Source: Dehalococcoidia bacterium
GTDB taxonomy: Bacteria > Chloroflexota > Dehalococcoidia > Lucifugimonadales > CAZENU01
Direction of reading: 5' to 3'
DNA length: 64,000 nucleotides
Assembly: GCA_965117035.1 (NCBI GenBank)
Contig: OZ220748.1
Span: 3,519,392-3,583,391 of the forward strand
This document shows positions 14,221 to 39,128 of the stretch, piece by piece (within the stretch, counting starts at the first letter, position 1; every line of letters starts with the position of its first letter). A program made the position numbers and the translations under genes. The notes beneath the pieces were generated by a model. The model saw only the letters and a program-made list of their open reading frames with translations, had not been told where the DNA came from and did no database searches.

Positions 14221-14221
14221 G

Positions 14222-20507: not shown

Positions 20508-20655
20508 AGTAGTGGATAGTGGATAGTTGCTAGTGGATAGTTAAGAGGGACGTTGGCAACTATACACCTGCGGCCCGACACCCGCCACTGGGCGAAGTAG
20601 TGGATAGTGAATAGTGGCAAGTGGATAGTTAAGAGCGGTCTCGGCGGCTATGGAT
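20508..20655. repeat. AT-rich TATCCACTA/ATAGTGG element, two tandem copies (2a 20508-20566, 2b 20596-20655)
   Basis: Both copies share AGTGGATAGT(g/t)...AGTGGATAGTTAAGAG(g/c)g...ggc(a/g)(a/g)ctat. An inverted CTATCCACTA sits at 20743-20752, overlapping the fabF stop codon. Confidence 0.6.
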
Positions 20656-20742
20656 GTGCTGCTCCGCGCCTGTCGCGGGCGGGGAGAATGGACAGTCAAG
20701 GCCACGGCGGATCAGCGGTCGCTGCGCGCCCGCCTTTTCCCG

Positions 20743-21993
20743 CTATCCACTAAACCGCTTGAACACCAGGCACGCGTTCTGGCCGCCGAAGCCGAAGCTG
20801 TTGGACAGCACCGTGTCGACCCGCTGCTTGCGCGACTCGTTGGGCACGTAGTCGAGGTCGCACTCAGGGTCAGGGAACTCGTAGTTGACCGTCGGGTGGA
20901 TCTCGCCCTCCGTGATGGCCCTTACGGCGGCGACGGCCTCCAGCGCGCCGGCGCCGCCCAACGCGTGCCCGATCATCGACTTGGTGGAGCTGATCGGCAC
21001 CTTGTAGGCGACGTCTCCGAAGACCGCCTTGATCGCCATCGTCTCGGCGGCGTCGTTCTTGGGCGTCGACGTGCCGTGGGCGTTGATGTAGTCGATCTCG
21101 TCCGGCCCCAGCCGGGCGTCTTCCAGCGCCCACTGGATCGCCCTGGCCGCGCCGCTGCCGTCCTCGTCCGGCTGCACGGCGTGGAAGGCGTCCGACGAGA
21201 CGCCCTGGCCGGCGACCTCTACGATGATGTCGGCCCCGCGCGCGGAGGCGTGCTCCAGGCTCTCCAGCACGAAGATGGCCGAGCCCTCGGCGGGCACGAA
21301 GCCGTCGCGCTCGGCGTCGAACGGGCGGCTCGCCTTCTCGGGCTCGTCGTTGCGGCGGCTCAGCGCCTTGATGACGTTGAAGCCGCCGAGGCCCAGCTCG
21401 CAGATGCCGGCCTCGCACCCGCCCGCGAGGACGACGTCCGCCGCGCCGCGCCTGACGACCTCCATGCCCTCGCCGATGCCCTGCGTCCCGGCCGCGCACG
21501 CCGTGATGATCGTGGACGTGTAGCCCTTGAGCCCGAATACGCGGCTCACGGTCGCCGCCGCCATGTTCGGCAGGATCATCGGGATGAAGAACGGGCTCAC
21601 CCTCATGCCGCCGCGCCCGACCAGCGTCCGCGCGTTCTGCTCGGTCGTCGGAAAGCCGCCGTTGCCGTTGCCCATGACGACGCCGAGCCGGCCGGGATCG
21701 AGCGACCCCAGGTCGAGCCCCGCGTCCTCGATGGCCTGCCCCGCCGCGGCGACCGCGAGCTGGGAGAAGCGGGCCATGCGGCGCGCGTCCCTCGCGTCCA
21801 TGAAATCGCCGGGATCGAAGTCCGTGACCTCGCCCGCGATGCGTGACGGATACGCGGACGCGTCGCACAGCGTGATCGGTCCGATGCCCGATTGCCCCCG
21901 CACCAGCGCCTGCCAGAACTCGTCCGGCGACGTGCCGAGAGGCGTCATCGCGCCGATGCCCGTTACCACAACCCGTCTTCTTGAATCGCTCAT
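20743..21993 (-). CDS. fabF: 3-oxoacyl-[ACP] synthase II
   Basis: VVVTGIG; active-site segment ITACAAG; HGTSTPKND; KSMIGHALGGAGA; NSFGFGGQN. Confidence 0.92.
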   Translation of the reverse strand: MSDSRRRVVVTGIGAMTPLGTSPDEFWQALVRGQSGIGPITLCDASAYPSRIAGEVTDFDPGDFMDARDARRMARFSQLAVAAAGQAIEDAGLDLGSLDPGRLGVVMGNGNGGFPTTEQNARTLVGRGGMRVSPFFIPMILPNMAAATVSRVFGLKGYTSTIITACAAGTQGIGEGMEVVRRGAADVVLAGGCEAGICELGLGGFNVIKALSRRNDEPEKASRPFDAERDGFVPAEGSAIFVLESLEHASARGADIIVEVAGQGVSSDAFHAVQPDEDGSGAARAIQWALEDARLGPDEIDYINAHGTSTPKNDAAETMAIKAVFGDVAYKVPISSTKSMIGHALGGAGALEAVAAVRAITEGEIHPTVNYEFPDPECDLDYVPNESRKQRVDTVLSNSFGFGGQNACLVFKRFSG

Positions 21994-22003
21994 CGCAACC
22001 TCG

Positions 22004-23416
22004 TCAAGTCCTGCGCGCCGGTCGCTCCATATCCGGGTACGTCTCCGGGACGATGCCCGTCATCTCCTCCAGCACCTCGGCGACGACCGACAGGGAGCCG
22101 GTCGCCAGCACCGTGTCGCCGTCCCGCGCCACGTCTATCGCGTGCCGCGTCGCCCGTCCCACGTCGTCGAATCGCGCCAGGACGGGAAGCCCGCGCTCCT
22201 CGTACGCCGCCGCCACGTCGCCCGTGTCCATCGCACGCGGGTCCCTCGACCGCACCGCCACGATATCCGGCGACAGCGCCCTCAACTCGTCGGCCATGCC
22301 GGTTGCGCTGTGGCTGCCCAGGACGCCGAAGACGACGATCAGGCGGCCAGGCGTCAACAGGCCCGGCAGCGTTTCGACCAGGCGTCGCATGGCGTCCGGG
22401 TTGTGCGCTCCGTCGACGAGGACAAGTTTACCATCGTGGACGAACGCCTGGAGCCTGCCCGCCCACTCGACGTTCCTGAACCCCTCGGCGATGGCGGTGC
22501 GGGGGATGTCGCGGCCCTGCTCGACCAGCGTCTCGATCACCGCGACTGCAGTCGCCGCGTTCTCGAGCTGGTGGTCGCCGAGCAGCGGCATCGAGAGACT
22601 GTACTCGCCCCTGGCCGTCGACAGCTCGAACGACTGCCCCCCGGCGTCCATCCCGGTACGCCGCCACGATGCGCGGTCGTTGACCGAAATGAGGTCGGCG
22701 CCCCGCGCCTCGGCGACGTCCGTGAACACGCCCATCGCCTCATCGGTCTGCGGGGCGACGACCACCGGGACGCCCGGCTTGATGATCCCGGCCTTCTCGC
22801 GCGCGATCAGTGAAACCGTGTCGCCGAGCACCCGCGTGTGGTCGAGACTGATCGATGTGATCGCGCAGACCTCGGGCTCCACGACGTTTGTGGCGTCGAG
22901 ACGGCCGCCCAGGCCGACCTCGACGACCTGGAACGCGGCGGCGATGTTCCTGAAGTGCAGGAAGGCCATCGTCGTCAGCAGCTCGAAGTACGAGACGCCG
23001 CCGTAGCCGCCGAACCTGCCTACCCACTCGACCGCAGGCCACGCCTCGGAGACCAGATGGCCGAACGTCTCGCGCGATATCGGCGTGAGGCCGACGCGGA
23101 TGCGCTCCGTAGGGCTGTGCAGGCTGGGCGACGTGTAGAGCCCGGTCGTGTGACCCGCCGCCGTGAGCACCGACGTGACGAGCGCGGCTGTGCTGCCCTT
23201 GCCGTTTGTGCCCGCGACGTGGACGGTGGGCGTCGCCAGGTGCGGATCGCCCAGCCGCCGCATCAGGAGCCCGATCCGCTGCAGGTGGAACTCCGAGTGG
23301 CCCGGCGTGCGAGTCGAGCGCTCGAAGTCGACCAGGCTGGAGGCGCGGCGCAGCGCCTCGTCGTAGTCGAAAGTCGGCGGCGCGTCGGTCTCGGAGCCTG
23401 CGGGGTTGTCGTCCAT
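22004..23416 (-). CDS. folC: Bifunctional folylpolyglutamate synthase / dihydrofolate synthase
   Basis: ATG at 23416 (MDDNPAG...). The P-loop VAGTNGKGST and the Mur-ligase middle and C-terminal patterns are present. The 135-codon N-terminal extension of the track ORF is Arg/Ala-rich shadow. Confidence 0.85.
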   Translation of the reverse strand: MDDNPAGSETDAPPTFDYDEALRRASSLVDFERSTRTPGHSEFHLQRIGLLMRRLGDPHLATPTVHVAGTNGKGSTAALVTSVLTAAGHTTGLYTSPSLHSPTERIRVGLTPISRETFGHLVSEAWPAVEWVGRFGGYGGVSYFELLTTMAFLHFRNIAAAFQVVEVGLGGRLDATNVVEPEVCAITSISLDHTRVLGDTVSLIAREKAGIIKPGVPVVVAPQTDEAMGVFTDVAEARGADLISVNDRASWRRTGMDAGGQSFELSTARGEYSLSMPLLGDHQLENAATAVAVIETLVEQGRDIPRTAIAEGFRNVEWAGRLQAFVHDGKLVLVDGAHNPDAMRRLVETLPGLLTPGRLIVVFGVLGSHSATGMADELRALSPDIVAVRSRDPRAMDTGDVAAAYEERGLPVLARFDDVGRATRHAIDVARDGDTVLATGSLSVVAEVLEEMTGIVPETYPDMERPARRT

Positions 23417-23436
23417 CGTCTGGGCCTGACCCGCGG

Positions 23437-24396
23437 TCAGTGGTCGCGGACGCGCGACGGCATGAAGCCGAGGTTGATCTTCAGCGCGTCCCGCAGTCGT
23501 ATGTCGCGCAGGTAGTCGATGTTGCCCTCCAGCGGCCGCGGCGCGAACCCGAAGTTGCGCTCCACCGAGTCGACCTCGGTCACGTTGTCGACCGCGATCA
23601 TCTTTAGCTGCTCCCCGGTCACCGGCGGCCTCGGCGCGAGCGCCTCCATCAGCGCGACCGCCGGCCGCATCAGTTGCAGCGGCAGGTGGACCCTGGCGAT
23701 CGTCACGCCCAGCGTCCCGGCGACCAGGCCGACAAGCTCGTCGTAGCTGTACTGCGCCGGTCCGCCCGCCTCGATGGTGCGGCCGACGGTGTCGTCGCGA
23801 CGCAGCGCCTCGAGCAGGCACCGGGCCGCGTCGTCGGCCGCGATGGGCTGGAAGCGGTTCGCGCCGCTGCCGGCGACCGGCACCAGGGGGAACAGCTTCG
23901 CCTGCGCCGCGAGCACGTTGAAGAACTCGTCGCCCGGCCCGAAGCCGACCGAGAACCGGACGATTGTGTGCGCGAGACCGCTGTTCGCCACGTCCTGCTC
24001 CGCCGTCCAGCGCGAGTGGAGGTACGGTATCTCAGGGTCGGAGGTCGCGCCGATCGTGCTGGCGAACACGAAGCGACCGACCGCCGCGGCAGACGCGGCC
24101 GCCAGCATGTTCCTCGTGCCCTCGACGTTGACCCGGTGGAAGGTCCTGTCTCCGCTCTCGCGCACGACCGCCACCAGGTGAACGACCGCCCCGATGCCCT
24201 CGCACGCGCCCGCCAGCGACTCACGGTCGAGCACGCTGCCCTCGGCCGCCTCCACCCCGTCCGGCAGCCCGCCCTCCGGGACGTTCCGGTGCACGAGCAA
24301 GCGCACCGCGAAGCCGGCGTCCGCCAGCGCGGCGACGACGCGCCGCCCGATGAACCCGGTGCCTCCGGTTACGAGTACGGTCGTTTCAGGCATCAT
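23437..24396 (-). CDS. Atypical SDR / NAD(P)-binding epimerase-like protein (NmrA/NDUFA9-like)
   Basis: VLVTGGTGFIGRRVV Rossmann motif; 319 aa; no classical YxxxK that I can place with confidence. Confidence 0.7.
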   Translation of the reverse strand: MMPETTVLVTGGTGFIGRRVVAALADAGFAVRLLVHRNVPEGGLPDGVEAAEGSVLDRESLAGACEGIGAVVHLVAVVRESGDRTFHRVNVEGTRNMLAAASAAAVGRFVFASTIGATSDPEIPYLHSRWTAEQDVANSGLAHTIVRFSVGFGPGDEFFNVLAAQAKLFPLVPVAGSGANRFQPIAADDAARCLLEALRRDDTVGRTIEAGGPAQYSYDELVGLVAGTLGVTIARVHLPLQLMRPAVALMEALAPRPPVTGEQLKMIAVDNVTEVDSVERNFGFAPRPLEGNIDYLRDIRLRDALKINLGFMPSRVRDH

Positions 24397-24479
24397 GCCG
24401 CTGTGTCGGGTATATGGATGCAGGGTAGGGGGCAGTCACGCGTCTATCATACAACCTGCGTCGCCGCGGGACGCGAGCA

Positions 24480-26117
24480 TCACGGGCTTGCGGGGACCGC
24501 GCCCTGCTCCTTCATCTCGATCCACTCGCTGACGTTGAAGCCGCGCCGCCCGGCCTCCGTCTCCGCCTTCTGGAGCTCCTGCCACAGCTCGAAGTCGGCC
24601 ACTTCCACTGCCGGCTGGCGGACCGCTGCCGTCGACGGTTCCTCCATCCAGTCGAAGTAGCCGGTCACGTTCATGTACGCGATGACGGCTATCGCGAGGG
24701 CGGCTGTGCCTCCGATCAGCCACCGTTGCGCCGGGCGCGCGTCCCATAGCCACTGGAGCGCCAGCGCGATGAACAGGTAGAAGAAAGGTGCGGTCCCGAC
24801 CGCCCGCGCGCCGTCCGGCGTCGCGTTGGACAGCACCTGCACCGGGAACAGCATCATCAGGAAGAAGACCCACCAGAGCAGCGTGTGCCGCCACCGCAGT
24901 AAGGATACGGCCATGCCGAGCCAGAACAGCACCGCCGTCAGCCGGTCGAGGAAGCCTCGCCCTCCCGGGATGTAGCGCGCGTTCAGGCCGACGTGCGACG
25001 AGTCCGGGTCCAGCAGGATGAATCCCTGAACGTTGCGCCAGACCTGCACGGCCATGATCTCGACGGCGTTCTTGTCGCCGAACTGGACGCGGTTCTCCTC
25101 GTTCAGTATCCACACCGCCCTGGTACGGGTCGTATAGCCTTCCCAGTTGTCCACGGCGAAGTTCAGGTGGGGCAGGAACAGCAGGGCCGCGACGGCGACC
25201 ATGACGGCGTATCCGACAAGCACACGCCTGCGGTCCTCCCAGTGCAGCGCCAGCGCTATGGGCAGATAGGCCGCGAGGGCGACGATTACGAAACGCCCGC
25301 CGGGGTAGCCGTAGAGTCCCAGGGCCGCGAACAGCCCCGTCGCCGCGTACAGGGCCAGGTGCCGTCGTCGGAGCGCCGCCGTGAAGGCCAGCAGCGCCAG
25401 CAGGGCATACAGCGCGACGTGGATGTTGTACCACCCGGCCCGGGAGAAGTGCAGGTACCACAGGCTGGTCGCCAGCAGCAGCGTCGCGGCCAGCGCGGCC
25501 GGCCTGCCCAGTTCGTTCTGGCGCGCCACGAAGTAGAACGCCGGCAGCGACAGCGTGCTGAGAACGACGCTGGCCATCCGCATGCCCGCGATCGTGTCGC
25601 CGAACACGTCCATGAACCAGCCGATCAGGTACATGCTGAAGGCGGGCGACTGCGCCCAGTCCATCCCGAAGAAGCCGGGCCCGGCGTCGGCCATGATGCG
25701 GTAGACGACCTGCAGGTTGTCCGCCTCGTCGGCCAGCACGTTCGGCGGGACGTCCGTGAGCGAGACGAGCCGCAGCGCCAGCGCCAGGGCCACGATGGCG
25801 ACGAGCGCGACCGTCTCCCAGCCGGTGAGCCCGAGCGCGTGGAGGCGCGTCCGCACCGGCTCGAGCAAGTTCGATGCCGAGGCTATATGCGGTATGCGCG
25901 GCATCGCTGCGGGCGCGACAGCTCCACCGGGCTGCGGCGCAGCCGGCAGTGGCCCGGACTCCGCCAACGGCGTCCCGCACGCGTCGCAGAACCGGTGGCC
26001 GATGGGATTCGGGGTCGAACAGGAGTTGCAGGCGACGTCGGCCCGCAGGCCGCGCCCGCAATCGCCGCAGAACTTCGCCCGCGGCAGGTTCTCGTAGCTA
26101 CACCAGGGGCAGTCCAT
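24480..26117 (-). CDS. Membrane glycosyltransferase, GT-C fold (PMT/ArnT-like, GT39/GT83-type) with N-terminal double zinc ribbon
   Basis: N-terminal CPWC-x11-CGDC-x10-CNSC-x11-CDAC. At least 10 hydrophobic helices follow. The first extracytoplasmic loop carries the acidic motif LADEADN, as in GT-C enzymes. Confidence 0.75.
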   Translation of the reverse strand: MDCPWCSYENLPRAKFCGDCGRGLRADVACNSCSTPNPIGHRFCDACGTPLAESGPLPAAPQPGGAVAPAAMPRIPHIASASNLLEPVRTRLHALGLTGWETVALVAIVALALALRLVSLTDVPPNVLADEADNLQVVYRIMADAGPGFFGMDWAQSPAFSMYLIGWFMDVFGDTIAGMRMASVVLSTLSLPAFYFVARQNELGRPAALAATLLLATSLWYLHFSRAGWYNIHVALYALLALLAFTAALRRRHLALYAATGLFAALGLYGYPGGRFVIVALAAYLPIALALHWEDRRRVLVGYAVMVAVAALLFLPHLNFAVDNWEGYTTRTRAVWILNEENRVQFGDKNAVEIMAVQVWRNVQGFILLDPDSSHVGLNARYIPGGRGFLDRLTAVLFWLGMAVSLLRWRHTLLWWVFFLMMLFPVQVLSNATPDGARAVGTAPFFYLFIALALQWLWDARPAQRWLIGGTAALAIAVIAYMNVTGYFDWMEEPSTAAVRQPAVEVADFELWQELQKAETEAGRRGFNVSEWIEMKEQGAVPASP

Positions 26118-26333
26118 CTTCGGTGAGTCGGCTCCAGGCGAGGGTCATGAAGCTCCGGACGCAGTGTGGCCGCATCGTGGTCGGTCCAGGGGATGCCCGC
26201 AGCCACGCCGGTCACGCAATTCGGGAGAGATGATACCATCGGATCGGGCCAGTGCCAGATCGCCTGGATTCGCGGATCCGTCCGACATCGTTCACTCGGC
26301 CCGGATTCGCGTACCGCCGAGGAGGTGCGTGCC

Positions 26334-29300
26334 ATGGCATTCCTCAGGTCCGTACGACCGCTCTGGGGACTAACGGTCGTACTGGCTCTGGCTACGGCCG
26401 TCGCCTTCTCTGTCGTCTACGAGGCCCGCGGTCCCGACCGGGCCATCGACGCCCAATCCCCGGAGATCCGCATCGACTCCGTGAGTCCCGTGCCTCCCGC
26501 CTGCATCGTGTTGAGCTCGGATGTCGTCAGCCAACGGACGCTGACGATTACCGGCCGGAATCTGGCGGCCACGTCGGACACGAGGCTTCAGTTCCGGCTG
26601 GTGGGCAGCATAGACATCTCCATCCTATTCGGTCTGCAGGTGAACTGGGAGAGCGACACGCGCATCACGCTGGACATGGGCGAGATCAGGAGAAGCCTGT
26701 GGACCTTCAAGGTCATGAATATGCAGGTCCGGGTCACGGGGGAGAGGAATAAGCTCAACTCCAACTGGTCTGAGCGCTTCCTGGTCGTCAGGACCGCGGA
26801 CAGGTGCGAGGTGCAGGGGCCAACGCCGACGCCGACATGGGCGCCGGCCGAATTCCCCGCAAGGCCGGCCGTTCGCGGACTCGCGGGAGACCTCTGGGCG
26901 GACGTGATCCTCGGGAAGCCGGACTTCTCGCAGATAGTCCCCAAGAGCGTCGTTCCGTTCAAGGTGTTCAACCCCGGAGGCGTTGTCGTAGACCGCTCGA
27001 CCGATCCTGGCAGGGCGTACGTCTGGGACTCGGGCAACAGCCGTATCCTGGGCATCGATCTCGCGAAGTGCTACGACGGCCCCAGCCCATGCTCTGCCGA
27101 GATCGTGCTCGGCCAGCCATCCCTGTACGACCGTGGGGCCTGTAACCGGGACAGTGGCGTCCAGGGCTACCCGGCGCGGGCTACGGCCAGCGCCGAGACC
27201 CTGTGCGGCATGCCCGACTTCTCCCTTAGCCCGTGGGAGGCCCACAACTTCGTGACGATGGCGGTCGACAGCCGCGGCGCACTGTACGTTCCTGATTTTT
27301 CGAACAACAGGGTGTTGAAGTACAACAATCCCTTCGTCAGCGACTCCGTTGCCGACGCGGTATGGGGTCAAGCCGACTTCTCGGGCATGGACTGCAACCG
27401 CGGCGACTTCGGCCGGCCGACGTCCGAGACCATCTGCTTCGACTCGGTCACCAACAGGCTCGTGACCAACCTGCAGAGTGCGGGCGTAGAGGTCGATGAC
27501 GAGGGCAACGTGTGGGTAGCTGACACGGGCAATCACCGCGTTGTGCGTTTCTCGATGAGCTCCCTCACGGGCGCGGTCTCCAGGACCGCCAGCCTCGTCT
27601 TGGGCCAGCCGGACTTCGGGAGCGCCGAGCCCGGACGCGCCCTGAACAGGCTGTACGCGCCTTCGGCGGTCAGGATCGCTCCAGATGGCTCGGCGTACGT
27701 CGCCGATACGGGCAACAGCCGGGTGCTCGTCTTCAAGCCTCCATTCGAGTCCGGCATGGAGGCGGACTCCGAGTTCGGGTCGCAGTTGTACCATCCGACA
27801 TCGGTCGAATTCGATCCGGCCGGCCGCGGCGTGTGGGTCAACGACGCGGGGAACCGCATGGTTGAGCTGTGGGATATGGCGGGCACGTCGGTGTCGAAGG
27901 TGCTTGGGAAGGACTCCTATCGACCTGACCGAGCGTGCGGCAGACCGTTGGAGTCCCTGGCCGGCGCTCCGCACCTCTGTTACATCGCCGGAGGATTTGG
28001 GATCGACGGCAATGGGAATGTACTCGTTCCCGTGTTCCTCGCTACGGCTGACGTGATCCGGTTTGGGACCGCGGGAAGCGATCCAATCGGCCGCGCGGAC
28101 AAGCGCCTTTTCTTCCCGCCGCCGGACTCTAACTTCAAAGACCTCGAGAGCATACACTCCGCCCGTGGCGTCGCGGTCTGGAGAGACCAGCTCATAGTCT
28201 CCGACATCGCCAGGCTGATGTTCTGGAACGGGCTAGACACCCTGTCGAATGGCAGGCCAGCTGACGGCGTAGTAGGCGACGAGTTCACCTATCGGGACGG
28301 ACGCCCCTGGTGCTGCGGCAGGATCAAGGTGGACGCGGCCGGCCGACTCTGGGTCTTGTCTTTCGAGGGAAGAAAGTTCGTCGACGTCTATCAACTCCCA
28401 CTGACCGATGAATCCGTCCCGCTGTACACCGTGTGGACTGACGTCGGCGGGACCGTTCCGGTCTTGGGAGAGGACTCCGGGATACAGCTTGGCCCCGTGA
28501 TGTTCGGGGTCGCGCCGGTTGGGTCCGGGGAGTTCGTCTGGCTGAGCGATACGGACAATCATCGCGTGCTGCGCATCCGGGATCCCTTGACGAACCCGGT
28601 CGTGGACGTGGTCCTGGGACAGGAGAACGCCAGTGGGAACGAGTGCAACCGCGGCCGGTTCAAGGCAGCGGCCAGGACCTCGGTGGAGCTCCAGGCAAAC
28701 AGCGACGTGCTCTGTTTCCCGGGGGCGCTATCCATCGATCGGTTCGGCAATCTCTATGTGTCGGACCACGGGCTGGAAGTGAATGGAAACCTCCGTCTGC
28801 TGGTGTTCTCGCCTACGGCGATTCCGTCGACCAATTCGGAGGCGATATTCGCTCCGTTCGCGTCTAAAATATTCGTCCGTTCCGCTGTTGGCCGCCACAA
28901 CCTGTGGGCGGATCCTCAGGGGCGTGGAGCAGTATTTGGCGAACGCGATCTAACTCTGACGTCCGCCACATGGGAGGTTGCGTTCGACAGCACCAACAGG
29001 ATGGTAACGGGGTACAACGCCTATGTTGGCCCAAGGTTCGTTGGGGTATACGACGATCCTCTCGGCCCGGCCACACTGCCCGATGCCTTCCTCAACGACT
29101 TTGGATCAATGCCGTTCGCGGTAGCCTTCGACGACGACGACAACCTGTACGTCGGCGACATCAACCGCGCCAGGGTTCTCGTGTACCGCAATCCGTTCCA
29201 CAATCCGCCGCGGACCGCCGCGGCGCCGACTCCGGAGGCTGCGCCGCCTGTGCCCCAGTATCCGGCGACCATAGCGTCGGTCCATCCAGGCCCTCCATAT

Positions 29301-30167
29301 TGCGTGGTGCGTCGGTCTCAGCATCGCTACGAGAAGACCTTCGTCCTGGAGTTCGACGGCGACATCGGGGCGGGCGAGCATCTGGTCTTCCGCAGGGTCG
29401 TCGACGGCCACCGAGAAGGGCTCCCGCTCAACGACCGGAGCCAAGTCAGAAGGAGTGGGAATCGCATCACCGTCGACATGACACAGCTAGGGCCTCGTGC
29501 CTGGCGGGAGCGTCCGAGGCTGACGTTGACGGTACGAGTCGTCGACGGCGACTTCCGTCCGCTGTCGAACTGGTCGCCGGTGTTCCTGCTGGCCGACGAT
29601 GTCGAGACCTGCGGCGCTGCCCTGCCTACGCCCACCCCGACTCCGACGCAGACCCCGACACCAACCCACACACCGACGTCGACTCCGACCCCCACCCGAA
29701 CGCCTACGCCAAGCCCCACGCCTACGCCGACTCCCACGGCAACTATCACGCCTACCCCAACCCCCACCTCCACCCCCACGCCGACTCTGTCGCCAACGCC
29801 AATGCCCACGGCGACGTTGATGCCAACCCCAACGCCTACTCCAACCCCGACACCCAGCCCAACGGCGACACTCTCGCCTACGCCGCCCTCCACCGCGGCA
29901 TCGGAGCTGACTGCCACCGTCGCGCCCGGGACGACGCCGACGCCGCGTCCTGCGACGCCACCCACGCCGGAGTCCGCGGCGGTGCCACCGACCGCCGAGA
30001 TGCCGTCCGCACCCGAAGGCGGCGGCTGTACCGCGATCGCAGACGTACGACCCGGTGGCATCGAACTGAGCATGATGCTGCTACTGCTGTTGCCGGCCGG
30101 GCTCGCGGGGTGGAGGAGACGTCGCGGCCCGGTCACGTCGCCCAGGGATGGCGAACAGCGCCGATAA
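26334..30167 (+). CDS. Giant secreted/anchored NHL-repeat beta-propeller protein with Pro/Thr linkers and conserved C-terminal GGGC-TM-Arg tail (paralog 1)
   Basis: ATG at 26334 follows GGAGGT. There is an N-terminal signal anchor (PLWGLTVVLALATAVAF). About 10 NHL-like blades are present ([84 protein letters not shown]...). A ~125-aa PT linker leads to the tail [10 protein letters not shown]...[21 protein letters not shown]. Confidence 0.8.
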   Translation: MAFLRSVRPLWGLTVVLALATAVAFSVVYEARGPDRAIDAQSPEIRIDSVSPVPPACIVLSSDVVSQRTLTITGRNLAATSDTRLQFRLVGSIDISILFGLQVNWESDTRITLDMGEIRRSLWTFKVMNMQVRVTGERNKLNSNWSERFLVVRTADRCEVQGPTPTPTWAPAEFPARPAVRGLAGDLWADVILGKPDFSQIVPKSVVPFKVFNPGGVVVDRSTDPGRAYVWDSGNSRILGIDLAKCYDGPSPCSAEIVLGQPSLYDRGACNRDSGVQGYPARATASAETLCGMPDFSLSPWEAHNFVTMAVDSRGALYVPDFSNNRVLKYNNPFVSDSVADAVWGQADFSGMDCNRGDFGRPTSETICFDSVTNRLVTNLQSAGVEVDDEGNVWVADTGNHRVVRFSMSSLTGAVSRTASLVLGQPDFGSAEPGRALNRLYAPSAVRIAPDGSAYVADTGNSRVLVFKPPFESGMEADSEFGSQLYHPTSVEFDPAGRGVWVNDAGNRMVELWDMAGTSVSKVLGKDSYRPDRACGRPLESLAGAPHLCYIAGGFGIDGNGNVLVPVFLATADVIRFGTAGSDPIGRADKRLFFPPPDSNFKDLESIHSARGVAVWRDQLIVSDIARLMFWNGLDTLSNGRPADGVVGDEFTYRDGRPWCCGRIKVDAAGRLWVLSFEGRKFVDVYQLPLTDESVPLYTVWTDVGGTVPVLGEDSGIQLGPVMFGVAPVGSGEFVWLSDTDNHRVLRIRDPLTNPVVDVVLGQENASGNECNRGRFKAAARTSVELQANSDVLCFPGALSIDRFGNLYVSDHGLEVNGNLRLLVFSPTAIPSTNSEAIFAPFASKIFVRSAVGRHNLWADPQGRGAVFGERDLTLTSATWEVAFDSTNRMVTGYNAYVGPRFVGVYDDPLGPATLPDAFLNDFGSMPFAVAFDDDDNLYVGDINRARVLVYRNPFHNPPRTAAAPTPEAAPPVPQYPATIASVHPGPPYCVVRRSQHRYEKTFVLEFDGDIGAGEHLVFRRVVDGHREGLPLNDRSQVRRSGNRITVDMTQLGPRAWRERPRLTLTVRVVDGDFRPLSNWSPVFLLADDVETCGAALPTPTPTPTQTPTPTHTPTSTPTPTRTPTPSPTPTPTPTATITPTPTPTSTPTPTLSPTPMPTATLMPTPTPTPTPTPSPTATLSPTPPSTAASELTATVAPGTTPTPRPATPPTPESAAVPPTAEMPSAPEGGGCTAIADVRPGGIELSMMLLLLLPAGLAGWRRRRGPVTSPRDGEQRR

Positions 30168-30237
30168 AGGCCGGCGTCCGTGGGACGCGGCGGGTTACCT
30201 TGCGTATCGTTCTGTCGACGTTGACCGGGTCAAGCCT

Positions 30238-31527
30238 TCAGCCGGCGCGGGAGGCGTAGTGCAGCGCCACCTTCCGTATCGCCCTGGCGATGTCGAGGAT
30301 GTCTTCCTCGGTGAACGTGCTCAGGAATTGGATGCCGCCGACCTTCGGCAGCTCGCGCTCGATCACCGGCAGATGCAGCGCGTTGTAGTCGATGCGCCGC
30401 TTGCCGGTCTCGTCGACGAACGGGTACCCGGACTTGCCGTAGGTGCGCTCCTCGGCGAACACGGGGTAGCGGTATAGCGGCTTGCCCTGGATGTACGGGC
30501 CACCGCACAGGCCGATGCCCTCGGCCTGCATAGCCCGGCAGAACTGCTCGCAGTCGACTCCCATCTCCTCCTCGATTATCTTGAAGCCGTAGAACCAGTG
30601 CGTGCGCACGTTCCCTTCGCGCACGAGCTGGTGCCGGAAGCCGGGCAGCTCGTATGTCTCCTCGTCCAGGATCGCCGCCATTCTCCCCCTGTGCTCCTTG
30701 TACCACTGCCAGCGCTGGATCTGCGCCAGCCCGATCGCGGCCTGCAGATCGCTCATCGTGTGGAAGTCGCCTAGGAACGAGTAGCCGCGCTCCGAGCCTC
30801 TACGCTCGCTCGTCGGCCGCAGCGACTCCCGCAGCTCGTCGTCGTACTCCGACCCCTTGTGCGAGTGGCCCTTCGCGCGACGCGCCAGCGCCTCGTTGTT
30901 GGTGATGATCATGCCGCCCTGGCCGGTCGTCATCATCTTGCCGCCCAGCGAGAAGCACCCCATGTCGCCCATCGTGCCCACGAGCTGGCCCTTGTACTCG
31001 GCAAGGTGGGCCTGCGCGCAGTCCTCGATCACCGGCAGGTTGTGCCGACGGCCGATGTCCAGCACCGCGTCCATGTCGCATGGGTTGCCGAAGAGGTGGA
31101 CGACCAGTATCGCGCCCGTGCGGTCCGTGATCCGGCGCTCGATGTCCGCCGGGTCGGTGTTGAACGTGTCGCCATCCCAGTCGGCGAAGACCGGGATCAG
31201 GTTCTGGAGCAGGATGCCCTGGACGGTGCCGATGTCCGTCACCGGCGTCGTGATGATCTCGTCCCCGGGTTCGAGGTCGAGAGCGGCGACGGCCGAGTGC
31301 AGCGCCCCCGAGCCCGAGTCGGTCGCCAGCGCGTACTTGATGTCGTGCTTCTGCGCGAACTTGTCCTCGAACGCCTGGACCTTCTCCCCGGAGTTCCACC
31401 GGACCATCGCGTTCTGGACGACCTCGGTCACCTGCCGCAGGTCCTCCTCGCCGAAGAAGTGCTTGGAGCCGAAGGGCTTGGTGCGGACCGGCGTCCCGCC
31501 GTCGATTGCCAGGGTCTCGGTGGTCAT
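30238..31527 (-). CDS. DegT/DnrJ/EryC1/StrS-family PLP-dependent sugar aminotransferase
   Basis: ATG at 31527 (MTTETLAIDGGTP...) follows GGGGGAG. Family pattern DSGSGALH, IEDCAQAH, and the PLP-Lys segment CFSLGGKMMTTGQGG. Confidence 0.85.
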   Translation of the reverse strand: MTTETLAIDGGTPVRTKPFGSKHFFGEEDLRQVTEVVQNAMVRWNSGEKVQAFEDKFAQKHDIKYALATDSGSGALHSAVAALDLEPGDEIITTPVTDIGTVQGILLQNLIPVFADWDGDTFNTDPADIERRITDRTGAILVVHLFGNPCDMDAVLDIGRRHNLPVIEDCAQAHLAEYKGQLVGTMGDMGCFSLGGKMMTTGQGGMIITNNEALARRAKGHSHKGSEYDDELRESLRPTSERRGSERGYSFLGDFHTMSDLQAAIGLAQIQRWQWYKEHRGRMAAILDEETYELPGFRHQLVREGNVRTHWFYGFKIIEEEMGVDCEQFCRAMQAEGIGLCGGPYIQGKPLYRYPVFAEERTYGKSGYPFVDETGKRRIDYNALHLPVIERELPKVGGIQFLSTFTEEDILDIARAIRKVALHYASRAG

Positions 31528-31935
31528 GGCGTCTCCCCCAGGGTGTCGAGTGTTCGCCCGATGATACGCCCGCCCGTTCGCCTTGGCAACGGCGCTCGGC
31601 GGGATGGCCCTCGCCGGGAACCGCGTCTTTGGAGTCCACCGTCGGAGACCCTGCATACCTGGTCAATCCGCGCAGAGCCTGCCCCATGAAGACGGAGGCG
31701 GCAATCTTGGGGCCGTCGATGCGTGCGCCGCGTTCCCCTCAGCAACTTTGGACGCGAGGCCGCCACCTCTGCCCCGACGGCCGCCGCTCACGCAGCTTGG
31801 GGAGATGATACCATCGGACGCCTCAGACATGGACCGTCGGTCGCTTCCCTGCGGGGAACGCTTCCCATACGTGTCCGACGAGTCGATGCCCGTTTACCAG
31901 CCGCGGGTTGGCGTAACCGCCCAGAGGTGAGAGCC

Positions 31936-34900
31936 ATGCCGCAATTCAACCTGGACCGCCCGCTTTGGGGGCTGATGGTCTTGCTGGCTTTCGTATCGGC
32001 CGTCGCCCTCCTGTCGATCTTCGAGAGCCGTGGGTCCGACGCGGGTCTCAACGCCCAGTCGGGGTCGGAGTTCCCGGCCAGGCCGGCGGTGAGGGGAGTC
32101 CCTGGCGACCTCTGGGCTGACGTGATCCTCGGGAAGCCGGACTTCACGCAGACAGTGCCGAAGAGCGTTGTCCCGTTCAAGGTGTTCAACCCCGGTGGGG
32201 TTGTCGTGGACCGGTCGACCGATCCCGGCCGGGCGTATGTCTGGGACTCGGGCAACAGCCGGATTCTGGGTATCGATCTCGCCAAGTGCTATGAGAGTAC
32301 TGGGCCCTGCTCGGCCGATATTGTGCTGGGCCAGCCGTCGCTGTACGATCACGCGGCCTGCAACGGAGACAACGGCGTTCAGGACTATCCGTTTCGGGCA
32401 CTTGCCGGCGCCGAAACGCTATGCGGCAACCCCGACCACTCCCTCAGCCCGTGGGAAGCGCATATGTTTGTGACGATGGCGATCGACAGTCGCGGCGCCC
32501 TGTATGTCCCTGACTTTTCCAATCACAGGGTGCTGAAGTACAACAATCCCTTCGTCAGCGACGCCGTCGCCGACGCCGTGTGGGGACAGGCGGACTTCTC
32601 GGGCATCGAGTGCAACCGCGGGGACATCGGCCGGCCGACGGCCGAAACGCTCTGTTTCGACTCGGGCACCAACAGGCTCGCGACCAACCTGCAGAGCGTT
32701 GGCGTGGAGGTCGATGAGGAGGGAAACGTCTGGGTCGCGGACAGCGGCAATCACCGCATTCTTCGGTTCTCGATGAGCTCTCTGACGGGTGCGGTCTCCA
32801 GGAAAGCCAGCCTCGTCCTGGGCCAGGCTGACTTCGAGAGCGCCGAGCCCGGAAGGACCTTGGACAAGCTGTACGCGCCTTCGGCGGTGAGGTTCGCTCC
32901 CGATGGCTCGGCGTACGTTGCCGACACCGGCAACAACCGAGTCCTGGTCTTCAAGCCACCGTTCCAGTCCGGAATGGAGGCGGCCTTCGAGTTCGGGTCT
33001 CGACTGCACCATCCCACGTCGGTCGAAATCGACCCTGGCGGCCGCGGTGTATGGGTCAACGATGCGGGGAACTACATGGTCGAGCTGTGGGACGTGTCGG
33101 GTTCATCGGTCTTGAAGGTCCTCGGCAAGGACTCGTATCGGCCCGAGCGAGAGTGCTACAAGCCGCTTGAGTCGCTGCCCAGCAGTCCCCACATGTGTCC
33201 AATCGCCGGAGGCTTCGGGATCGACAGCCAGGGAAACGTCCTGATCCCCGTGTTCCTCCGCACCAATGACGTCATCCGCTTTACGACTGCCGGGCGCGCC
33301 CCGATCGGCCGCGCCGACAAGCGCCTGTTCTATCCGCCGGAGGACGCCAACTTCAAGGACCTCAAGGGGATACACTCCGCCCGCGGCGTAGCTGTCTGGA
33401 AGGACCAACTCGTCGTGTCCGACTTATTCCGGCTGATGTTTTGGAACGGGCTCGACATGCTATCGAACGGAAGACCGGCGGACGGCGTCGTTGGCGACGA
33501 AAATCAGGCCCGCGCCTGGTCGTGGTGCTGCGGCACGATCAAGGTGGACGCAGCAGGCCGCCTCTGGGTGTTGGCTTTCGAGGGACGGCGGTTCGTCGAC
33601 GTCTATCAGCTTCCGCTGACCGAAACATCAGTCCCGCTGCACACGATGTGGACAGATACAGGCATGACTCTTCCGGTACTGGGAGAGGACTCCCGGATCA
33701 TGCTCGGCCCCAGGATGTTCGGGATTGCGCCAGTTGGGTCCGGAGAGTTCGTCTGGCTGAGCGATGCTGACAATCATCGCGTGCTGCGCATCCGGGACCC
33801 CCTGACGCACCCGGTCGTGGATGTGATCCTGGGACAGGAGGACGCCAGCGGGAACGAGTGCAACCGCGGCCGGTTCGAGGCGGGGGCCAGGAACTCGGTC
33901 GGAGACCGGTCGAATGGTGATGTGCTCTGTTACCCTGGAGCGCTGTCCATCGACCGCCTTGGAAACCTCTACGTATCGGACCATTCGCTGGAAGTGAATG
34001 GGAACTTCCGCCTGCTCGTCTTCTCGGGGGCGGCACTCCCGACGACGAATTCGGAGGTCATATACGCCCCTCTGGCATCAAAGATATTCGTCCGTTCCGC
34101 CGAGGGTCGGAACAACCTATGGGCGGATCCCTTGGAGCGCGGAGCGGTAATCGGGGAGCAGGAGCGGACGCTTCTGATGGCGACCTGGGAGGTCGCGTTC
34201 GACAGCGCCAACAGGATGGTAGCGGGGTACAACGCGTACCTGGCCCCCAGGTTCGTAGGTGTCTACGACGACCCTCTTGGCCCGGACACGCTCCCGAATG
34301 CCTACCTGAACGACTTCGGCTCGTCGCCGTTCGCGATGACCTTTGACGACGACGACAACCTGTACGTCGGTGACCTCAACCGCGCCCGGGTCCTCGTATA
34401 CCACAACCCGTTTGGAAGTCCGCCGAGAACATCGCCCGTGCCAACCCCGGATACTCCGCCGCCGGTACCCGAGCACCCCATCACCATAACGTCGTTCCAT
34501 CCCGGCCCTCCATTTTGCGTGGTGCGCCGGTCTCAGCACCGGTACGAGCAGACCCTTGACCTGGAGATCGAAGGCGACATCGGGGGAGGCGGTCTTGGGT
34601 TGGTGTTTCGCATGGTGACCGATGGCCGCCGAGAACGAATCTCGCTCAACGACCGTAACCAGGTTCGAACGAGGGGAAATAGCATCACCGTCGACATGAG
34701 ACACTTCGGGCCTCGTGTCTGGCGGGAGCGCCCCAAGGTGACGATGATGGTCCGAATCGTCGACAGCGAATCCCTGCCGCTATCGAACTGGTCGCCGGCG
34801 TTCCTGCTCGCCGACGACGTCGAGACCTGCGGCGTTGCCCTGCCAACTCTGACGCCGACCCCGACGCCGACCTTCACGCCATCGCCGACGCCGACACCGA

Positions 34901-35346
34901 CCTTCACGCCATCGCCGACGCCAACGCCGACCCTTACGCCTACGCCGACACCGACGCCCACGCCGACCCTCACACCAACACAGACGCCCACGCCGACCTT
35001 CACACCGACACAGACACCTACGCCGACCCTGTCGCTGACTCCCACGCCGACCGCCACCGTCACGCCGTCACCGACCCTGACCCCGACCGTCACCCCGTCA
35101 CCGACCCCGATGTCGACTCACACCCCAACCCCGGTGGTAGATCCCGATTCCGTGACGGCCGTCGGGCCGACCGGCGAGGCGCCGTCCGGTGCCGAGGGCG
35201 GTGGCTGTACGGCGATAGCAGACGGTCGACCTGCGGGCACGGAGCTGAGCATGATGCTGCTCCTGCTCCTCCCGGCCGGACTTGCGGGCTGGATGAGGCG
35301 GCGAGGCCCGTTCACGGCGCCAGAGGATGGCGCGCGGTACCGGTGA
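31936..35346 (+). CDS. Giant secreted/anchored NHL-repeat beta-propeller protein (paralog 2)
   Basis: ATG at 31936. It is collinear with paralog 1 from [10 protein letters not shown] onward, with roughly three quarters of residues identical by eye. It has the same blades, the same [18 protein letters not shown] module, a ~100-aa PT linker, and the tail [10 protein letters not shown]...[21 protein letters not shown]. Confidence 0.8.
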
Positions 35347-35472
35347 TGCGCGAGCGCCCACCGGATGGCCACCCGACCGGGACGACCGCGCGAGGTTCCG
35401 GTGTGCACGTGTCTTGCCTCCTTGCCCCTTGACTGGAGAGGACTGAGGAGGGGTCGAACAGGAAACGGCGCC

Positions 35473-36609
35473 CTAGAGCCTGTCCCGCGCCTCGTGCCCG
35501 TATTTGCCGACCACGTCGCCGGCTTCGCTCACGACGAGCGCGTCCGGGAACAGGTGGGAGGTGGTGCAGGCGTGGCCGGGCGCGGCGAGCACGATGTCGC
35601 CGACGTCCAGCCTGGCGCCGTTCAGCTTCACCACGCCGTGCTCCTCGCTCTGTGAGACGACCTCGGCCTGGTCGGCGCCGACGACCCTGAACCGGTCCGG
35701 GATCGCCAGGTCCGGCGACGCGGCCTTGGAGCCGACGTCCAGCGTGACGGTGTCCATCTCCGGGTCGCGGTCGATCACCTGCCCGAGCACGACCCCGGCG
35801 ATCTTGAACCCGAGCTCCTTCATCGCGGAGTTCCGCACGTCCCAGTAGACCCACGTGCCTGGCGACACTCTGAGCCGGGGCTCCTTCAGGAACATGTGGA
35901 ACGACCACGAGCCCCCGGCGACGTTGTCGACGACCTCCAGACCCCGCCGCTCGGCGCGGTCCCAGACGTCGCGGATGTGCTCGATGCTCTCGTCGACCTT
36001 CGCCTGCCGCTCGACCACGTCGACGACGCCGAGCACGTGGCCGTCGAACAGGTGCACGCCGAGAGCCCGCAGCCCCGCGGTGTCCGCCGTCCGGGCGTAG
36101 AAGTCGCCCGCCTCCTGCCCGGGCTGCACCCCGGTCCGCCGCATCCCCGTGTCGATGTCCACGTACACGCCGACCTCGGTCCCGGCCTCGACGGCCGCGG
36201 CCGACATCGCGTCCAGGTGCTCCGCGGTACTGACGATCGTCTTGAGGTCGACGTCCGGATGGGCCTGCGAGAGGGCGATGAAGCGGCGCACCTTCGCGGG
36301 GTGGAGCACCGGAAACGAGATGATGATCTCCTTCACCCCGTTGCGCGCCAGCAGCTCCGCTTCCTCCAGGGTCGCGCACTTGAACGCCGTGATGCCGGCG
36401 TCCGTCTGCAGCTTCAGCACCTCGGCCGACTTGTGCGTCTTCGCGTGCGGGACGACACGGTCCGCCGAGCCGCAGACGCGGATCACCTCGGCGATGTTGT
36501 ACCGGACCAGGTGCTCGTAGACGAGAAAGGCTGGGGTCTCGATCTCGTCGGGACGGTTAAGCCGGTAGTCGCCGACCTCGATTCGGACCCGCTCGCCGAC
36601 TGTAGCCAT
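35473..36609 (-). CDS. D-threonine aldolase / D-serine dehydratase-like PLP enzyme (alanine racemase N-terminal fold)
   Basis: 378 aa. TPAFLVYEHLVRYNI..., the PLP-Lys segment PHAKTHK, and the C-terminal EEHGVV...PGHACTT pattern are typical of the DSD1/D-TA family. Confidence 0.75.
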   Translation of the reverse strand: MATVGERVRIEVGDYRLNRPDEIETPAFLVYEHLVRYNIAEVIRVCGSADRVVPHAKTHKSAEVLKLQTDAGITAFKCATLEEAELLARNGVKEIIISFPVLHPAKVRRFIALSQAHPDVDLKTIVSTAEHLDAMSAAAVEAGTEVGVYVDIDTGMRRTGVQPGQEAGDFYARTADTAGLRALGVHLFDGHVLGVVDVVERQAKVDESIEHIRDVWDRAERRGLEVVDNVAGGSWSFHMFLKEPRLRVSPGTWVYWDVRNSAMKELGFKIAGVVLGQVIDRDPEMDTVTLDVGSKAASPDLAIPDRFRVVGADQAEVVSQSEEHGVVKLNGARLDVGDIVLAAPGHACTTSHLFPDALVVSEAGDVVGKYGHEARDRL

Positions 36610-36948
36610 GGGATGACCTCCTTACGCGCGGGCATCGCTGGAACTGGTCGTCCGCGGGCCCGCGGCCTCCTCCGGGTCCGACGACGGACACAACCGGACC
36701 GCCGGGCGAGCCACGGCCGCGCGACCGGCCATCGCCGACGGCACGACTATACGGCCGCGGAAGCGGACGGTGCGCCCGCCGCCACGCGGCCAGCCCGCGA
36801 CCGCCCGCTTCCGATGGCGTCGCCACCAGGGCGGGATGTTCGGGACGCTCGGCGTCTGTCAGCAACCCGGCCGGTGGGACGGGTATGCGGCGCCACTCGC
36901 CGGTCCGGCGCGTGGCGCGGTGTCGGGCGCCCCTGGCGGGGCGGAGTC

Positions 36949-37161
36949 CTAGAGGCGCTCCCGCCCTGCCTGCGGCTTGGCCTTCAGCCTCTTGCTGATG
37001 TAGAACGAGAGGACGCCCATGAGCACACCCAGGACGAGCAAGACATAGGCCAGTACGTCCGGCGTCAGCAGGATCCTCCATAGCCCGAAGAAGACCAGGA
37101 CGAAAGCCAACAGGGTGCCCACGTAGTCGAGAATGTACAACAGGATTCTAATCTTGGTCAC
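36949..37161 (-). CDS. Possible small two-helix membrane protein
   Basis: The hydrophobic tail of ORF 36949..37482 (ILLYILDYVGTLLAFVLVFFGLW...VLLVLGVLMGVLSFYISKRLK) has lower GC than its surroundings. The only start candidates are GTG 37161, abutting GGGGAGG, or near-cognate codons. The start is uncertain. Confidence 0.35.
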   Translation of the reverse strand: MTKIRILLYILDYVGTLLAFVLVFFGLWRILLTPDVLAYVLLVLGVLMGVLSFYISKRLKAKPQAGRERL

Positions 37162-37314
37162 CTCCCCGATACGTAAGTGAATCCGCTCGACGGAGAATAT
37201 ACCAGACGGCTCGAAGTTGACAAGACCCCTTGCCCGACTCGCGCCGCGTCTTCGTTGACAGTCGCCGCGGCCTGGACTATAGTCGGCCCGGTCTCGTGTA
37301 CGGAGGACCCTCGA

Positions 37315-38247
37315 TTGACTAACGGCGGCCCCGAGAGCTTCGTCAGCAGCGTCGTCAAGCCCGACGACTTCGACGCGTTCTGGGAAGAGACGATGGCGGC
37401 GACCGAGTCGGTCCCGCCGGAGGCCCGGTTCGAGCCCGCTGAGATGCGCTCCACGGACGAAATCGAGGTGTTCGAGGGCCACTACCGCAGCTACGGCGGC
37501 CTCGAGATCGCGTGCTGGTACGCGAGGCCGCGCGGCGCGTCCGGGCCGCTCCCGGCCGTGCTGATGGTGCCCGGCTACGTCGGGGAGCCGACGATGCCGA
37601 CCGACCTCGCGGCCCAGGGCTACGCGGCGATCTCCGCGGCGCCCCGGGGCAAGCTGCGCAGCAACAGCGTCTTCAACCCCGGCTACCCCGGGCTGCTAGT
37701 GCACAACGCCACCGACCGCGATACATACGGCTACCGCGGCTTCTACATGGACGCGGTCCGCGCCTTCGACCTGCTGCGGAGCCTGCCTGAGGTCGACCCG
37801 GAGCGGGTCGCCGTGCGGGGCTCCAGCCAGGGCGGCGCGCTGACGCTGCTCGTCGCGGCACTGCGCGCCGGGCAGGTCGCGGCCGCGTCGGCCGGAGCGC
37901 CCTACCTTTGCTCGATGATGGACGCCGCGTCGCTGACCCGCTCGTACCCGTACGAGGAGATCAACGACTACACCAGGACGTACCCCGAACGCAGGCAGGC
38001 GATGACCGACGTTCTCAACTACTACGACATCCACAACTTCGTCGACCGGATACGCTGCCCCATCATCGTGAACATCGGACTCGTGGACGACGTGTGTCCC
38101 CCGGAGACGGGCTACGCCGTCTTCCGTGAGATCGGCAGCGACGACAAGCGGCTCTACCCGTACGAGGATTGCGCCCACGACGCGGGCAGCGGCGTCGGAC
38201 ACGGCGCCATAATCGACCGGTTCCTCGCGGACCATCTCGGGGCATAG
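37315..38247 (+). CDS. Acetyl xylan esterase / cephalosporin-C deacetylase (CE7, AXE1 family)
   Basis: TTG at 37315 lies 7 nt after GGAGGA. FDAFWEETM N-terminal pattern, nucleophile elbow GSSQGG, Asp in LVDDVCPP, His in CAHD. Confidence 0.8.
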   Translation: MTNGGPESFVSSVVKPDDFDAFWEETMAATESVPPEARFEPAEMRSTDEIEVFEGHYRSYGGLEIACWYARPRGASGPLPAVLMVPGYVGEPTMPTDLAAQGYAAISAAPRGKLRSNSVFNPGYPGLLVHNATDRDTYGYRGFYMDAVRAFDLLRSLPEVDPERVAVRGSSQGGALTLLVAALRAGQVAAASAGAPYLCSMMDAASLTRSYPYEEINDYTRTYPERRQAMTDVLNYYDIHNFVDRIRCPIIVNIGLVDDVCPPETGYAVFREIGSDDKRLYPYEDCAHDAGSGVGHGAIIDRFLADHLGA

Positions 38248-38251
38248 CGCC

Positions 38252-39106: not shown

Positions 39107-39128
39107 CGAGACCCTACTGGAGGACCGA

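Follow-up and report, generated by a model that had tools for sequence, protein, structure and literature searches.

The locus at 24480-35346 of a 64,000-nucleotide stretch of Dehalococcoidia DNA (contig OZ220748.1, positions 3,519,392 to 3,583,391 of the forward strand; the whole stretch is referred to here as the window) encodes a GT-C glycosyltransferase, two giant proteins with NHL propellers (NHL1 and NHL2) and a DegT-family aminotransferase. All components of the locus belong to known families. Judged from gene order in related genomes, the recurring unit is a lineage-restricted divergent pair, GT-C and NHL1, that is kept in some relatives of one Dehalococcoidia subclade. By the same comparison, DegT is a bystander, an unrelated neighbour, and NHL2, a diverged paralogue, came in on a 3.88-kb insertion together with a promoter-like element of its own. 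We tentatively propose, with somewhat less than even confidence, that GT-C is a general polyprenyl-phosphate-sugar enzyme that O-glycosylates exported proteins on their Pro/Thr stalks, with the NHL giants as prominent clients.

The GT-C/NHL pair in related genomes

The divergent arrangement of a GT-C gene of the window type (GT-C1) and an NHL gene is kept in three related loci (L001, L027 and L047). In L046, which is otherwise syntenic with the window, the slot beside the NHL gene holds a 633-aa paralogue of a second type, GT-C2 (7819-9720), instead of the 545-aa GT-C1. The pair is also found in entirely different flanks in L023, where the GT-C protein and the NHL core are 61% and 62% identical, respectively, to those of the window. 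In L006, a GT-C orthologue has directly upstream of it a divergently oriented 318-aa open reading frame (ORF; 8506-9462) whose match to the NHL core is limited to the last ~175 residues; this ORF looks like the decayed remnant of an NHL gene. A distant paralogue pair occurs in another neighbourhood in L005, where a 632-aa GT-C protein with a double zinc ribbon (DZR) is encoded head-to-head with a TPR-NHL protein.

The two kinds of domain also occur in single proteins. Twelve GT-C homologues (38-48% identity) carry a fused C-terminal NHL propeller, three of them confirmed by Pfam, and the genomic loci of three fusions of this kind were obtained as well (L029, L032 and L035). In L026, a separate PMT_2-NHL fusion stands beside a GT-C homologue, and another GT-C paralogue ends in a PA14 domain. 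Both the GT-C and the NHL proteins have their closest homologues in metagenome-assembled genomes (MAGs) of Dehalococcoidia/Chloroflexota; from record names alone, several related MAGs appear to be sponge-associated.

Elsewhere, GT-C orthologues sit among housekeeping genes (BirA, P5C reductase, PdxA, Fmt, GltB and FolC), a setting more in keeping with a general than with a dedicated enzyme. BirA, GT-C1 and GT-C2 (a DZR-PMT_2 paralogue, 24-33% identical) form a tandem in 13 Dehalococcoidia/SAR202 genomes with no NHL gene; the window shows one GT-C copy. The GT-C1/GT-C2 tandem is located at ~10001-13300 in each of L009-L021, L024 and L025, downstream of a biotin-protein ligase gene. Four further GT-C loci lie between the Fmt and glutamate synthase genes, with an NHL gene in none.

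Organization of the locus

The four ORFs are present at the positions and on the strands originally predicted for them, and their domains were confirmed by Pfam profile search. Public gene calls use identical starts (P0121, 545 aa; P0005, 1277 aa; P0001, 1136 aa; for DegT, 429 aa in L001). The features of the locus are as follows:

24480-26117, minus strand: GT-C glycosyltransferase, 545 aa, Pfam PMT_2 and DZR over their cut-offs (P0121)
25974-26111, minus strand: double zinc ribbon of GT-C, residues 3-48, presumed cytoplasmic (Pfam DZR)
25716-25730, minus strand: DEADN motif, D130-N134 of GT-C, candidate catalytic acidic motif in the first loop after transmembrane helix (TM) 1
26118-26333, no strand: divergent intergenic region between GT-C and NHL1, 216 bp, from the ORF coordinates
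26206-26243, plus strand: conserved upstream element, 38 nt, ~90 nt before the NHL1 start
26334-30167, plus strand: NHL1, 1277 aa, identical to database protein P0005
26466-26813, plus strand: N-terminal Cys-bracketed immunoglobulin (Ig)-like module of NHL1, residues ~45-160, Cys57 and Cys158
26847-29183, plus strand: propeller core of NHL1, residues ~172-950, by homology to the NHL2 model
29256-29615, plus strand: C-terminal Cys-bracketed Ig-like module of NHL1, Cys990 and Cys1093
29616-30017, plus strand: Pro/Thr stalk of NHL1, 134 aa (44 P, 46 T, 10 S)
30018-30164, plus strand: C-terminal tripartite tail of NHL1 (GGGC, Leu-rich TM segment with Pro, RRRR)
30238-31527, minus strand: DegT/DnrJ/EryC1-family pyridoxal phosphate (PLP) aminotransferase, 429 aa, a neighbour outside the conserved unit
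31596-35478, plus strand: 3.88-kb insertion carrying NHL2 and its own upstream region (blastn of L001 against the window)
31782-31818, plus strand: second copy of the upstream element, ~118 nt before the NHL2 start
31936-35346, plus strand: NHL2, 1136 aa, paralogue without the N-terminal Ig-like module (P0001; AlphaFold2 (AF2) model m8e8cedf53241)
34834-35196, plus strand: Pro/Thr stalk of NHL2, 121 aa (36 P, 44 T, 8 S)
35197-35343, plus strand: C-terminal tripartite tail of NHL2 (GGGC, TM, RRR)

Beyond GT-C, the next genes encode a member of the SDR epimerase/dehydratase family and then FolC and a FabF-like protein.

DegT and the insertion of NHL2

The aminotransferase is a clear member of the DegT family (PF01041, 272 bits versus a cut-off of 19.8). 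It reaches no NCBIfam equivalog at cut-off (ArnB: 170 bits versus 631), and the SDR that follows GT-C likewise matches no sugar-pathway equivalog (HpnA: 89 bits versus 368). Its position is variable: DegT directly adjoins the NHL gene in L001 and L027, lies four genes off in L046 and is not present within 10 kb of the pair in L047, L023 and L005. It is also absent from all 60 metagenomic loci that encode NHL-core homologues; the best segments of these homologues show 24-66% identity, in most cases 34-59%, and many of the contigs are short, so that fewer than 60 have informative flanks. The four-gene system with DegT that had been predicted originally is therefore not borne out, as the DegT linkage is lost in most of these genomes and NHL2 is an insertion.

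The evidence for this insertion comes from L001, where the gene order is GT-C, NHL, DegT and a racemase-like gene, with a single NHL gene (75% identical). When L001 was compared to the window using blastn, its flanks aligned to 30018-31595 and 35479-36623; in L001, DegT directly abuts the Ala_racemase_N/D-Ser-dehydratase-like gene. The core of NHL2 is 86% identical to that of P0002, 84% to that of P0003 and 77% to that of NHL1; P0002 and P0003 fill the GT-C-adjacent slot in their own genomes. A recent tandem duplication of NHL1 was considered as the source of NHL2 and rejected, since the two genes share 78% DNA identity and P0002 and P0003, from other genomes, are nearer relatives of NHL2. The divergent gap between DegT and NHL2 arose when NHL2 was inserted between DegT and its ancestral neighbour, and the head-to-head symmetry of adhesin and glycan genes is thus accidental. 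The earlier statement that each adhesin-like gene stands head-to-head with a glycan gene thus fails for DegT and NHL2, whose arrangement was produced by the insertion.

An Arn-like amino-sugar pathway made up of SDR, DegT and GT-C was also rejected, because the equivalog scores are far too low and no ArnA-, ArnC- or ArnD-type genes were detected among the window genes scanned. The locus resembles the ArnT/ArnB aminoarabinose lipid A pathway in having a PMT_2-family GT-C enzyme with a DegT-family aminotransferase and an SDR nearby, and differs from it in that the equivalogs fail widely, the ArnA, ArnC and ArnD genes are missing from this set and DegT is not stably linked.

The GT-C glycosyltransferase

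GT-C consists of a multi-pass PMT_2 membrane domain behind an N-terminal double zinc ribbon. The PMT_2 model (PF13231) scores 45 bits (cut-off 26.1) and DZR scores 36.2 bits (cut-off 27.3); the zinc ribbon is also matched by the NCBIfam model 4Cys_prefix_kin (27.4 bits versus a cut-off of 24). The PMT_2 score, together with a GT-C fold recognized by Foldseek (probability 1.00), places the protein in the GT-C superfamily. A Foldseek search of the PDB with the AF2 model (pLDDT 77.7) returned PglB, Pmt4, AglB, STT3, ArnT and Emb, with query-normalised TM-scores of ~0.4-0.5, and in a profile search of PDB sequences the zinc ribbon alone was matched. Placement in one characterized subfamily was attempted and abandoned, as neither search gave a single best class. 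The ArnT equivalog NF009784 scores 17.8 bits against a cut-off of 567, and the Agl23 equivalog likewise failed.

The DEADN motif was compared across 27 GT-C homologues: D130, E131, A132 and N134 are invariant and D133 is nearly invariant. D130-E131 resembles the acidic motif that serves catalysis in GT-C enzymes, among them the "DE" motif of PMT, and we infer that DEADN has a catalytic role. The last 63 residues of the protein are acidic (12 D+E versus 5 K+R). Because of this acidic end, and because homologues carry the NHL propeller at the same place, the C-terminus is suggested to be extracytoplasmic. A crude hydropathy count gave 9-11 candidate helices and is unreliable for siting the C-terminus.

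Among the related loci, L038 (1843-7797) contains a 1984-aa ORF in which GT-C regions of the PMT_2 type are joined to a membrane domain, DUF2298 (382 bits).

The NHL giants

NHL1 and NHL2 are NHL propeller proteins based on their NHL profile scores (PF01436, 76 and 86 bits versus a cut-off of 20) and on an all-beta AF2 core with propeller matches. The two are 78% identical over 927 aa. In NHL1, the order of parts is a signal/TM segment, an Ig-like module, two propellers, a second Ig-like module, the Pro/Thr (PT) stalk and the Cys-containing C-terminal anchor. Internal-repeat comparison divides the propeller core into two homologous halves ~417 aa apart with ~12 blade motifs, in place of the roughly 10 blades counted previously, and the core is predicted to form two roughly six-bladed propellers. 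The N- and C-terminal Ig-like modules of NHL1 share 29% identity over 120 aa, and the N-terminal copy was lost in frame from NHL2. Accordingly, the architecture once described as common to both giants holds for the core, the C-terminal Cys module, the Pro/Thr linker and the tail, whereas the N-terminal module is specific to NHL1. The linkers, originally estimated at 100-125 aa, measure 134 aa in NHL1 and 121 aa in NHL2, and their proline plus threonine share is 67% and 66%, respectively. A hydrophobic segment is indeed present at the N-terminus, where a signal anchor had been proposed; given the "AQ" conserved after it in most NHL homologues, this segment may be cleaved off as a signal peptide instead of serving as an anchor.

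The cysteines of the giants come as nearby pairs, including a vicinal CC, and the tail Cys is the sole unpaired one. This pattern fits an extracytoplasmic, disulfide-bonded protein. The vicinal Cys-Cys (W-CCG-IKVD) is located in the second half of the core at residues 531-532 of NHL2 (33526-33531), is also found in NHL1 and is invariant in 62/62 aligned homologues. Vicinal disulfides are rare and sometimes functional.

In the AF2 model of NHL2, the core has a pLDDT of ~90 and the stalk is disordered. The best Foldseek matches in the PDB are tandem-propeller proteins (BT4663 type and PorZ), with whole-chain TM-scores of 0.17-0.27 and identities of 10-12%. An enzyme-like function for the core was considered and set aside, since only generic propeller matches were obtained. 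The giants are similar to tandem-propeller proteins (the Bacteroides BT4663/BT4673 sensor domains, PorZ and PknD-type NHL proteins) in having two propellers followed by an Ig-like domain; unlike these, they have no kinase or type IX secretion system context, and the likeness is generic to the fold.

The NHL core of ~900 aa defines a large family whose members are typically 50-60% identical, with 1845 proteins at E ≤ 0.001 among 8000 candidates scored. Family members end in different ways: a PT stalk and GGGC tail, a PT stalk with a plain TM segment and RRRR, LRR/FN3 domains or a dockerin-like end; an N-terminal TPR also occurs. Some genomes carry more than one copy of the family per contig. 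All-against-all ORF clustering of 63 NHL loci revealed no recurrent neighbour of the giants, such as a sortase, CPBP protease or regulator.

The NHL gene is the most diverged gene of the syntenic locus (75-79% identity, versus 84-97% for KAS, FolC, SDR, GT-C, DegT and the racemase-like gene). The GC content at third codon positions (GC3) of both NHL genes is 0.79 along their whole length, compared to 0.91-0.95 in every neighbouring gene. Fast divergence and atypical GC3 fit an exposed surface protein, and the low GC3 suggests atypical codon usage, recombination or horizontal exchange.

The C-terminal tail

At their extreme C-terminus, both giants carry a Cys motif, a TM helix and an Arg cluster: GGGC with one Cys, ~14 residues, a Leu-rich helix with Pro, and RRRR. 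Cys-containing C-terminal sorting signals of tripartite form have been described by Haft (10.1101/2023.06.07.544157). The tail resembles these signals (MYXO-, JDVT-, Synerg- and CGP-CTERM) in its short one-Cys motif, hydrophobic helix and Arg cluster, and differs from them in the ~14 residues that separate the Cys from the helix.

The features by which such signals are curated (a model match, unrelated carrier proteins and a cognate CPBP protease) were not found for this tail. The JDVT-CTERM model gives 21.3 bits for the NHL1 tail (cut-off 27) and no match for NHL2. A phmmer search with a 52-aa tail against 1.84 billion representatives returned three fragments, all from the NHL family; when 0.9 Mb of related DNA was scanned with regular expressions, the tail turned up in NHL genes only; and a word-index search with a 54-aa tail yielded zero candidates. 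No CPBP protease gene was detected among the window genes scanned. As the tail is confined to one protein family in all of these scans, its interpretation as a modular sorting signal was rejected. The tail could be a sorting signal peculiar to this lineage, or no more than a conserved membrane anchor.

The upstream element

The two copies of the 38-nt element (26206-26243 and 31782-31818) are 87% identical. Their 17-nt core, GAGATGATACCATCGGA, is a near-palindrome (GATG-ATAC-CATC) that is also found upstream of the NHL gene in L001, L027, L046 and L047. Read on the plus strand, the element contains an extended -10-like sequence, TGATACCAT. The 216-bp gap has a single sigma-70-like match, which is on the minus strand, overlaps the element and has a TATCAT -10 facing GT-C. 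The element could be a promoter or an operator. No Rfam match indicative of an RNA element in the divergent gaps was found in 20000-40000.

Other features of the window

An ORF with a Calx-beta domain overlaps a CcmE gene or directly adjoins it, and a gene for an ECF sigma factor is close by (48175-48777, 47712-48218 and 46674-47249); this group is unrelated to the GT-C/NHL finding. The ORFs at 44110-45741, 13333-14316 and 15903-16385 (543, 327 and 160 aa) are supported by GC3 and have no Pfam match at E ≤ 1e-4.

Comparison with characterized glycosylation systems

PT-repeat linkers are heavily O-mannosylated by GT39 enzymes, for example in Cellulomonas, and in Caldicellulosiruptor bescii, CelA, a protein with TPTP-type linkers, is no longer glycosylated once a glycosyltransferase is deleted (PMC12757957). 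The premise that Pro/Thr linkers serve as GT39 substrates is supported, being documented in both Actinobacteria and Caldicellulosiruptor (PMC12757957).

GT-C is similar to the actinobacterial GT39 PMT enzymes of C. glutamicum, S. coelicolor and M. tuberculosis in that it is polytopic, has a GT-C fold and carries an acidic DE motif in its first loop; PT-repeat segments that resemble the linkers of C. fimi cellulases are encoded next door. In contrast to these enzymes, GT-C is a generic PMT_2 protein that stays below the PF02366 cut-off, has an N-terminal double zinc ribbon and belongs to another phylum. The C. bescii CelA system likewise combines a membrane enzyme with a large secreted or anchored multidomain protein bearing TPTP-type linkers, but the client there is a cellulase and here an NHL propeller protein, linked to the enzyme by synteny and fusions only. 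A search of the literature on GT-C/NHL fusions or pairing, or on PMT in Chloroflexi, found nothing relevant.

Possible function of the GT-C/NHL pair

Under the proposed stalk glycosylation, GT-C would take a polyprenyl-phosphate-sugar donor at the outer face of the membrane and O-glycosylate Thr and Ser residues of Pro/Thr stalks during export. It would serve many stalk proteins and not be dedicated to its neighbour, with the NHL giants among its main clients. The giants belong to a multi-paralogue, fast-evolving family of extracytoplasmic Dehalococcoidia proteins that carry two disulfide-rich propellers, flanked by Ig-like modules, on a stalk of ~120-135 aa above a lone-Cys membrane anchor. 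This proposal is supported by the recurrence of the pair, the existence of the fusions and the GT39 precedent on PT linkers.

Several results weigh against it. Under one-genome-per-species sampling, ~20 other GT-C orthologue loci were examined and none has an NHL gene. GT-C, searched for with four query types, was found in 0 of the 60 metagenomic NHL loci, and the NHL loci L002-L004 of Dehalococcoidia genomes are also without it. The linkage of GT-C to NHL genes in relatives, as originally predicted, is thus seen in L001, L027, L046, L047, L023 and L005, in the remnant in L006 and in the fusions, and is absent at these other loci. In the GT-C tree, the paired GT-C1 loci (the window clade, L023 and L006) fall on one branch, and as they share ancestry, the number of independent events behind the adjacency may be small. 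In L005, the NHL partner of GT-C lacks a PT-repeat stalk, which means that the pairing does not track the proposed substrate segment, and the GT-C-NHL fusions suggest that the propeller could be a working partner and not a substrate. With respect to the enzyme itself, the strict PMT model PF02366 is not reached (18.1 bits versus 22.7), the fold search scores PglB, Pmt4, AglB, ArnT and Emb about equally, and no polyprenyl-phosphate sugar synthase (GT2) was detected among the window genes scanned. The fold search thus favours neither a PMT-like nor an ArnT-like enzyme, and the PMT, ArnT and Agl23 models all fail.

These results bear on three other explanations. It is rather unlikely that the two genes have no functional link, with GT-C acting as an ArnT/Emb-like housekeeping envelope enzyme on lipid or polysaccharide and the adjacency being an inherited accident in one subclade. 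Such an accident would agree with the metagenomic loci and the ~20 GT-C loci that lack the partner gene and with fold scores for ArnT and Emb that are about as good as that for PMT; the single GT-C1 branch is explicable by one ancestral juxtaposition followed by losses, and the swap in L046 by differential loss from the GT-C1/GT-C2 tandem (13 loci). However, the pair survives complete flank turnover in L023, different GT-C and NHL subfamilies are paired a second time in L005, and the repeated GT-C-NHL fusions are hard to call chance. Those fusions, found with a C-terminal propeller in a related clade (and with PA14 in another paralogue), lend themselves to a different account, in which the NHL propeller binds the acceptor or glycan for GT-C, in cis in the fusions or in trans in the giant, and the sugar is really passed on to some other glycan or protein of the envelope. 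GT-C enzymes often carry appended extracytoplasmic acceptor-binding domains. The stalk-less NHL protein of L005 and the glycan-sensing BT4663-type tandem propellers and PorZ among the best structural matches would suit a partner of this kind, but an NHL gene is missing beside the majority of GT-C orthologues, and enzymes of the DZR type are free of propellers; an obligate enzyme subunit would not be expected to evolve fast, occur in several copies and mostly be encoded by itself, as the giants do, and the fold matches are those of a generic beta-propeller with low whole-chain TM-scores. We consider this account unlikely. A bolder version, in which Chloroflexota NHL propellers are the acceptor-selecting or acceptor-presenting module of a GT-C machine and the tail is an undescribed Dehalococcoidia-specific Cys sorting signal cut by an intramembrane protease, appears decidedly unlikely.

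The third explanation, a dedicated four-gene system in which GT-C attaches an amino sugar made with DegT to both NHL giants, is largely refuted by synteny and is very improbable. DegT does adjoin an NHL gene in the window, L001 and L027, and an SDR after GT-C, together with DegT and GT-C, superficially recalls the Arn pathway. This is outweighed by the distance or absence of DegT at the L046, L047, L023 and L005 pairs, the arrival of NHL2 beside DegT through insertion, the lack of any sugar-pathway equivalog match for DegT or SDR, and a scan of window genes that detected no ArnC-like GT2, ArnD or flippase.

If stalk glycosylation by GT-C is correct, PMT-like protein O-glycosylation would extend to uncultured Dehalococcoidia, and the abundant, rapidly diversifying glycosylated NHL surface proteins would be candidates for cell-cell or host contact. 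The GT-C-NHL fusions additionally provide a testable hint as to how some GT-C enzymes might recognize their acceptors.

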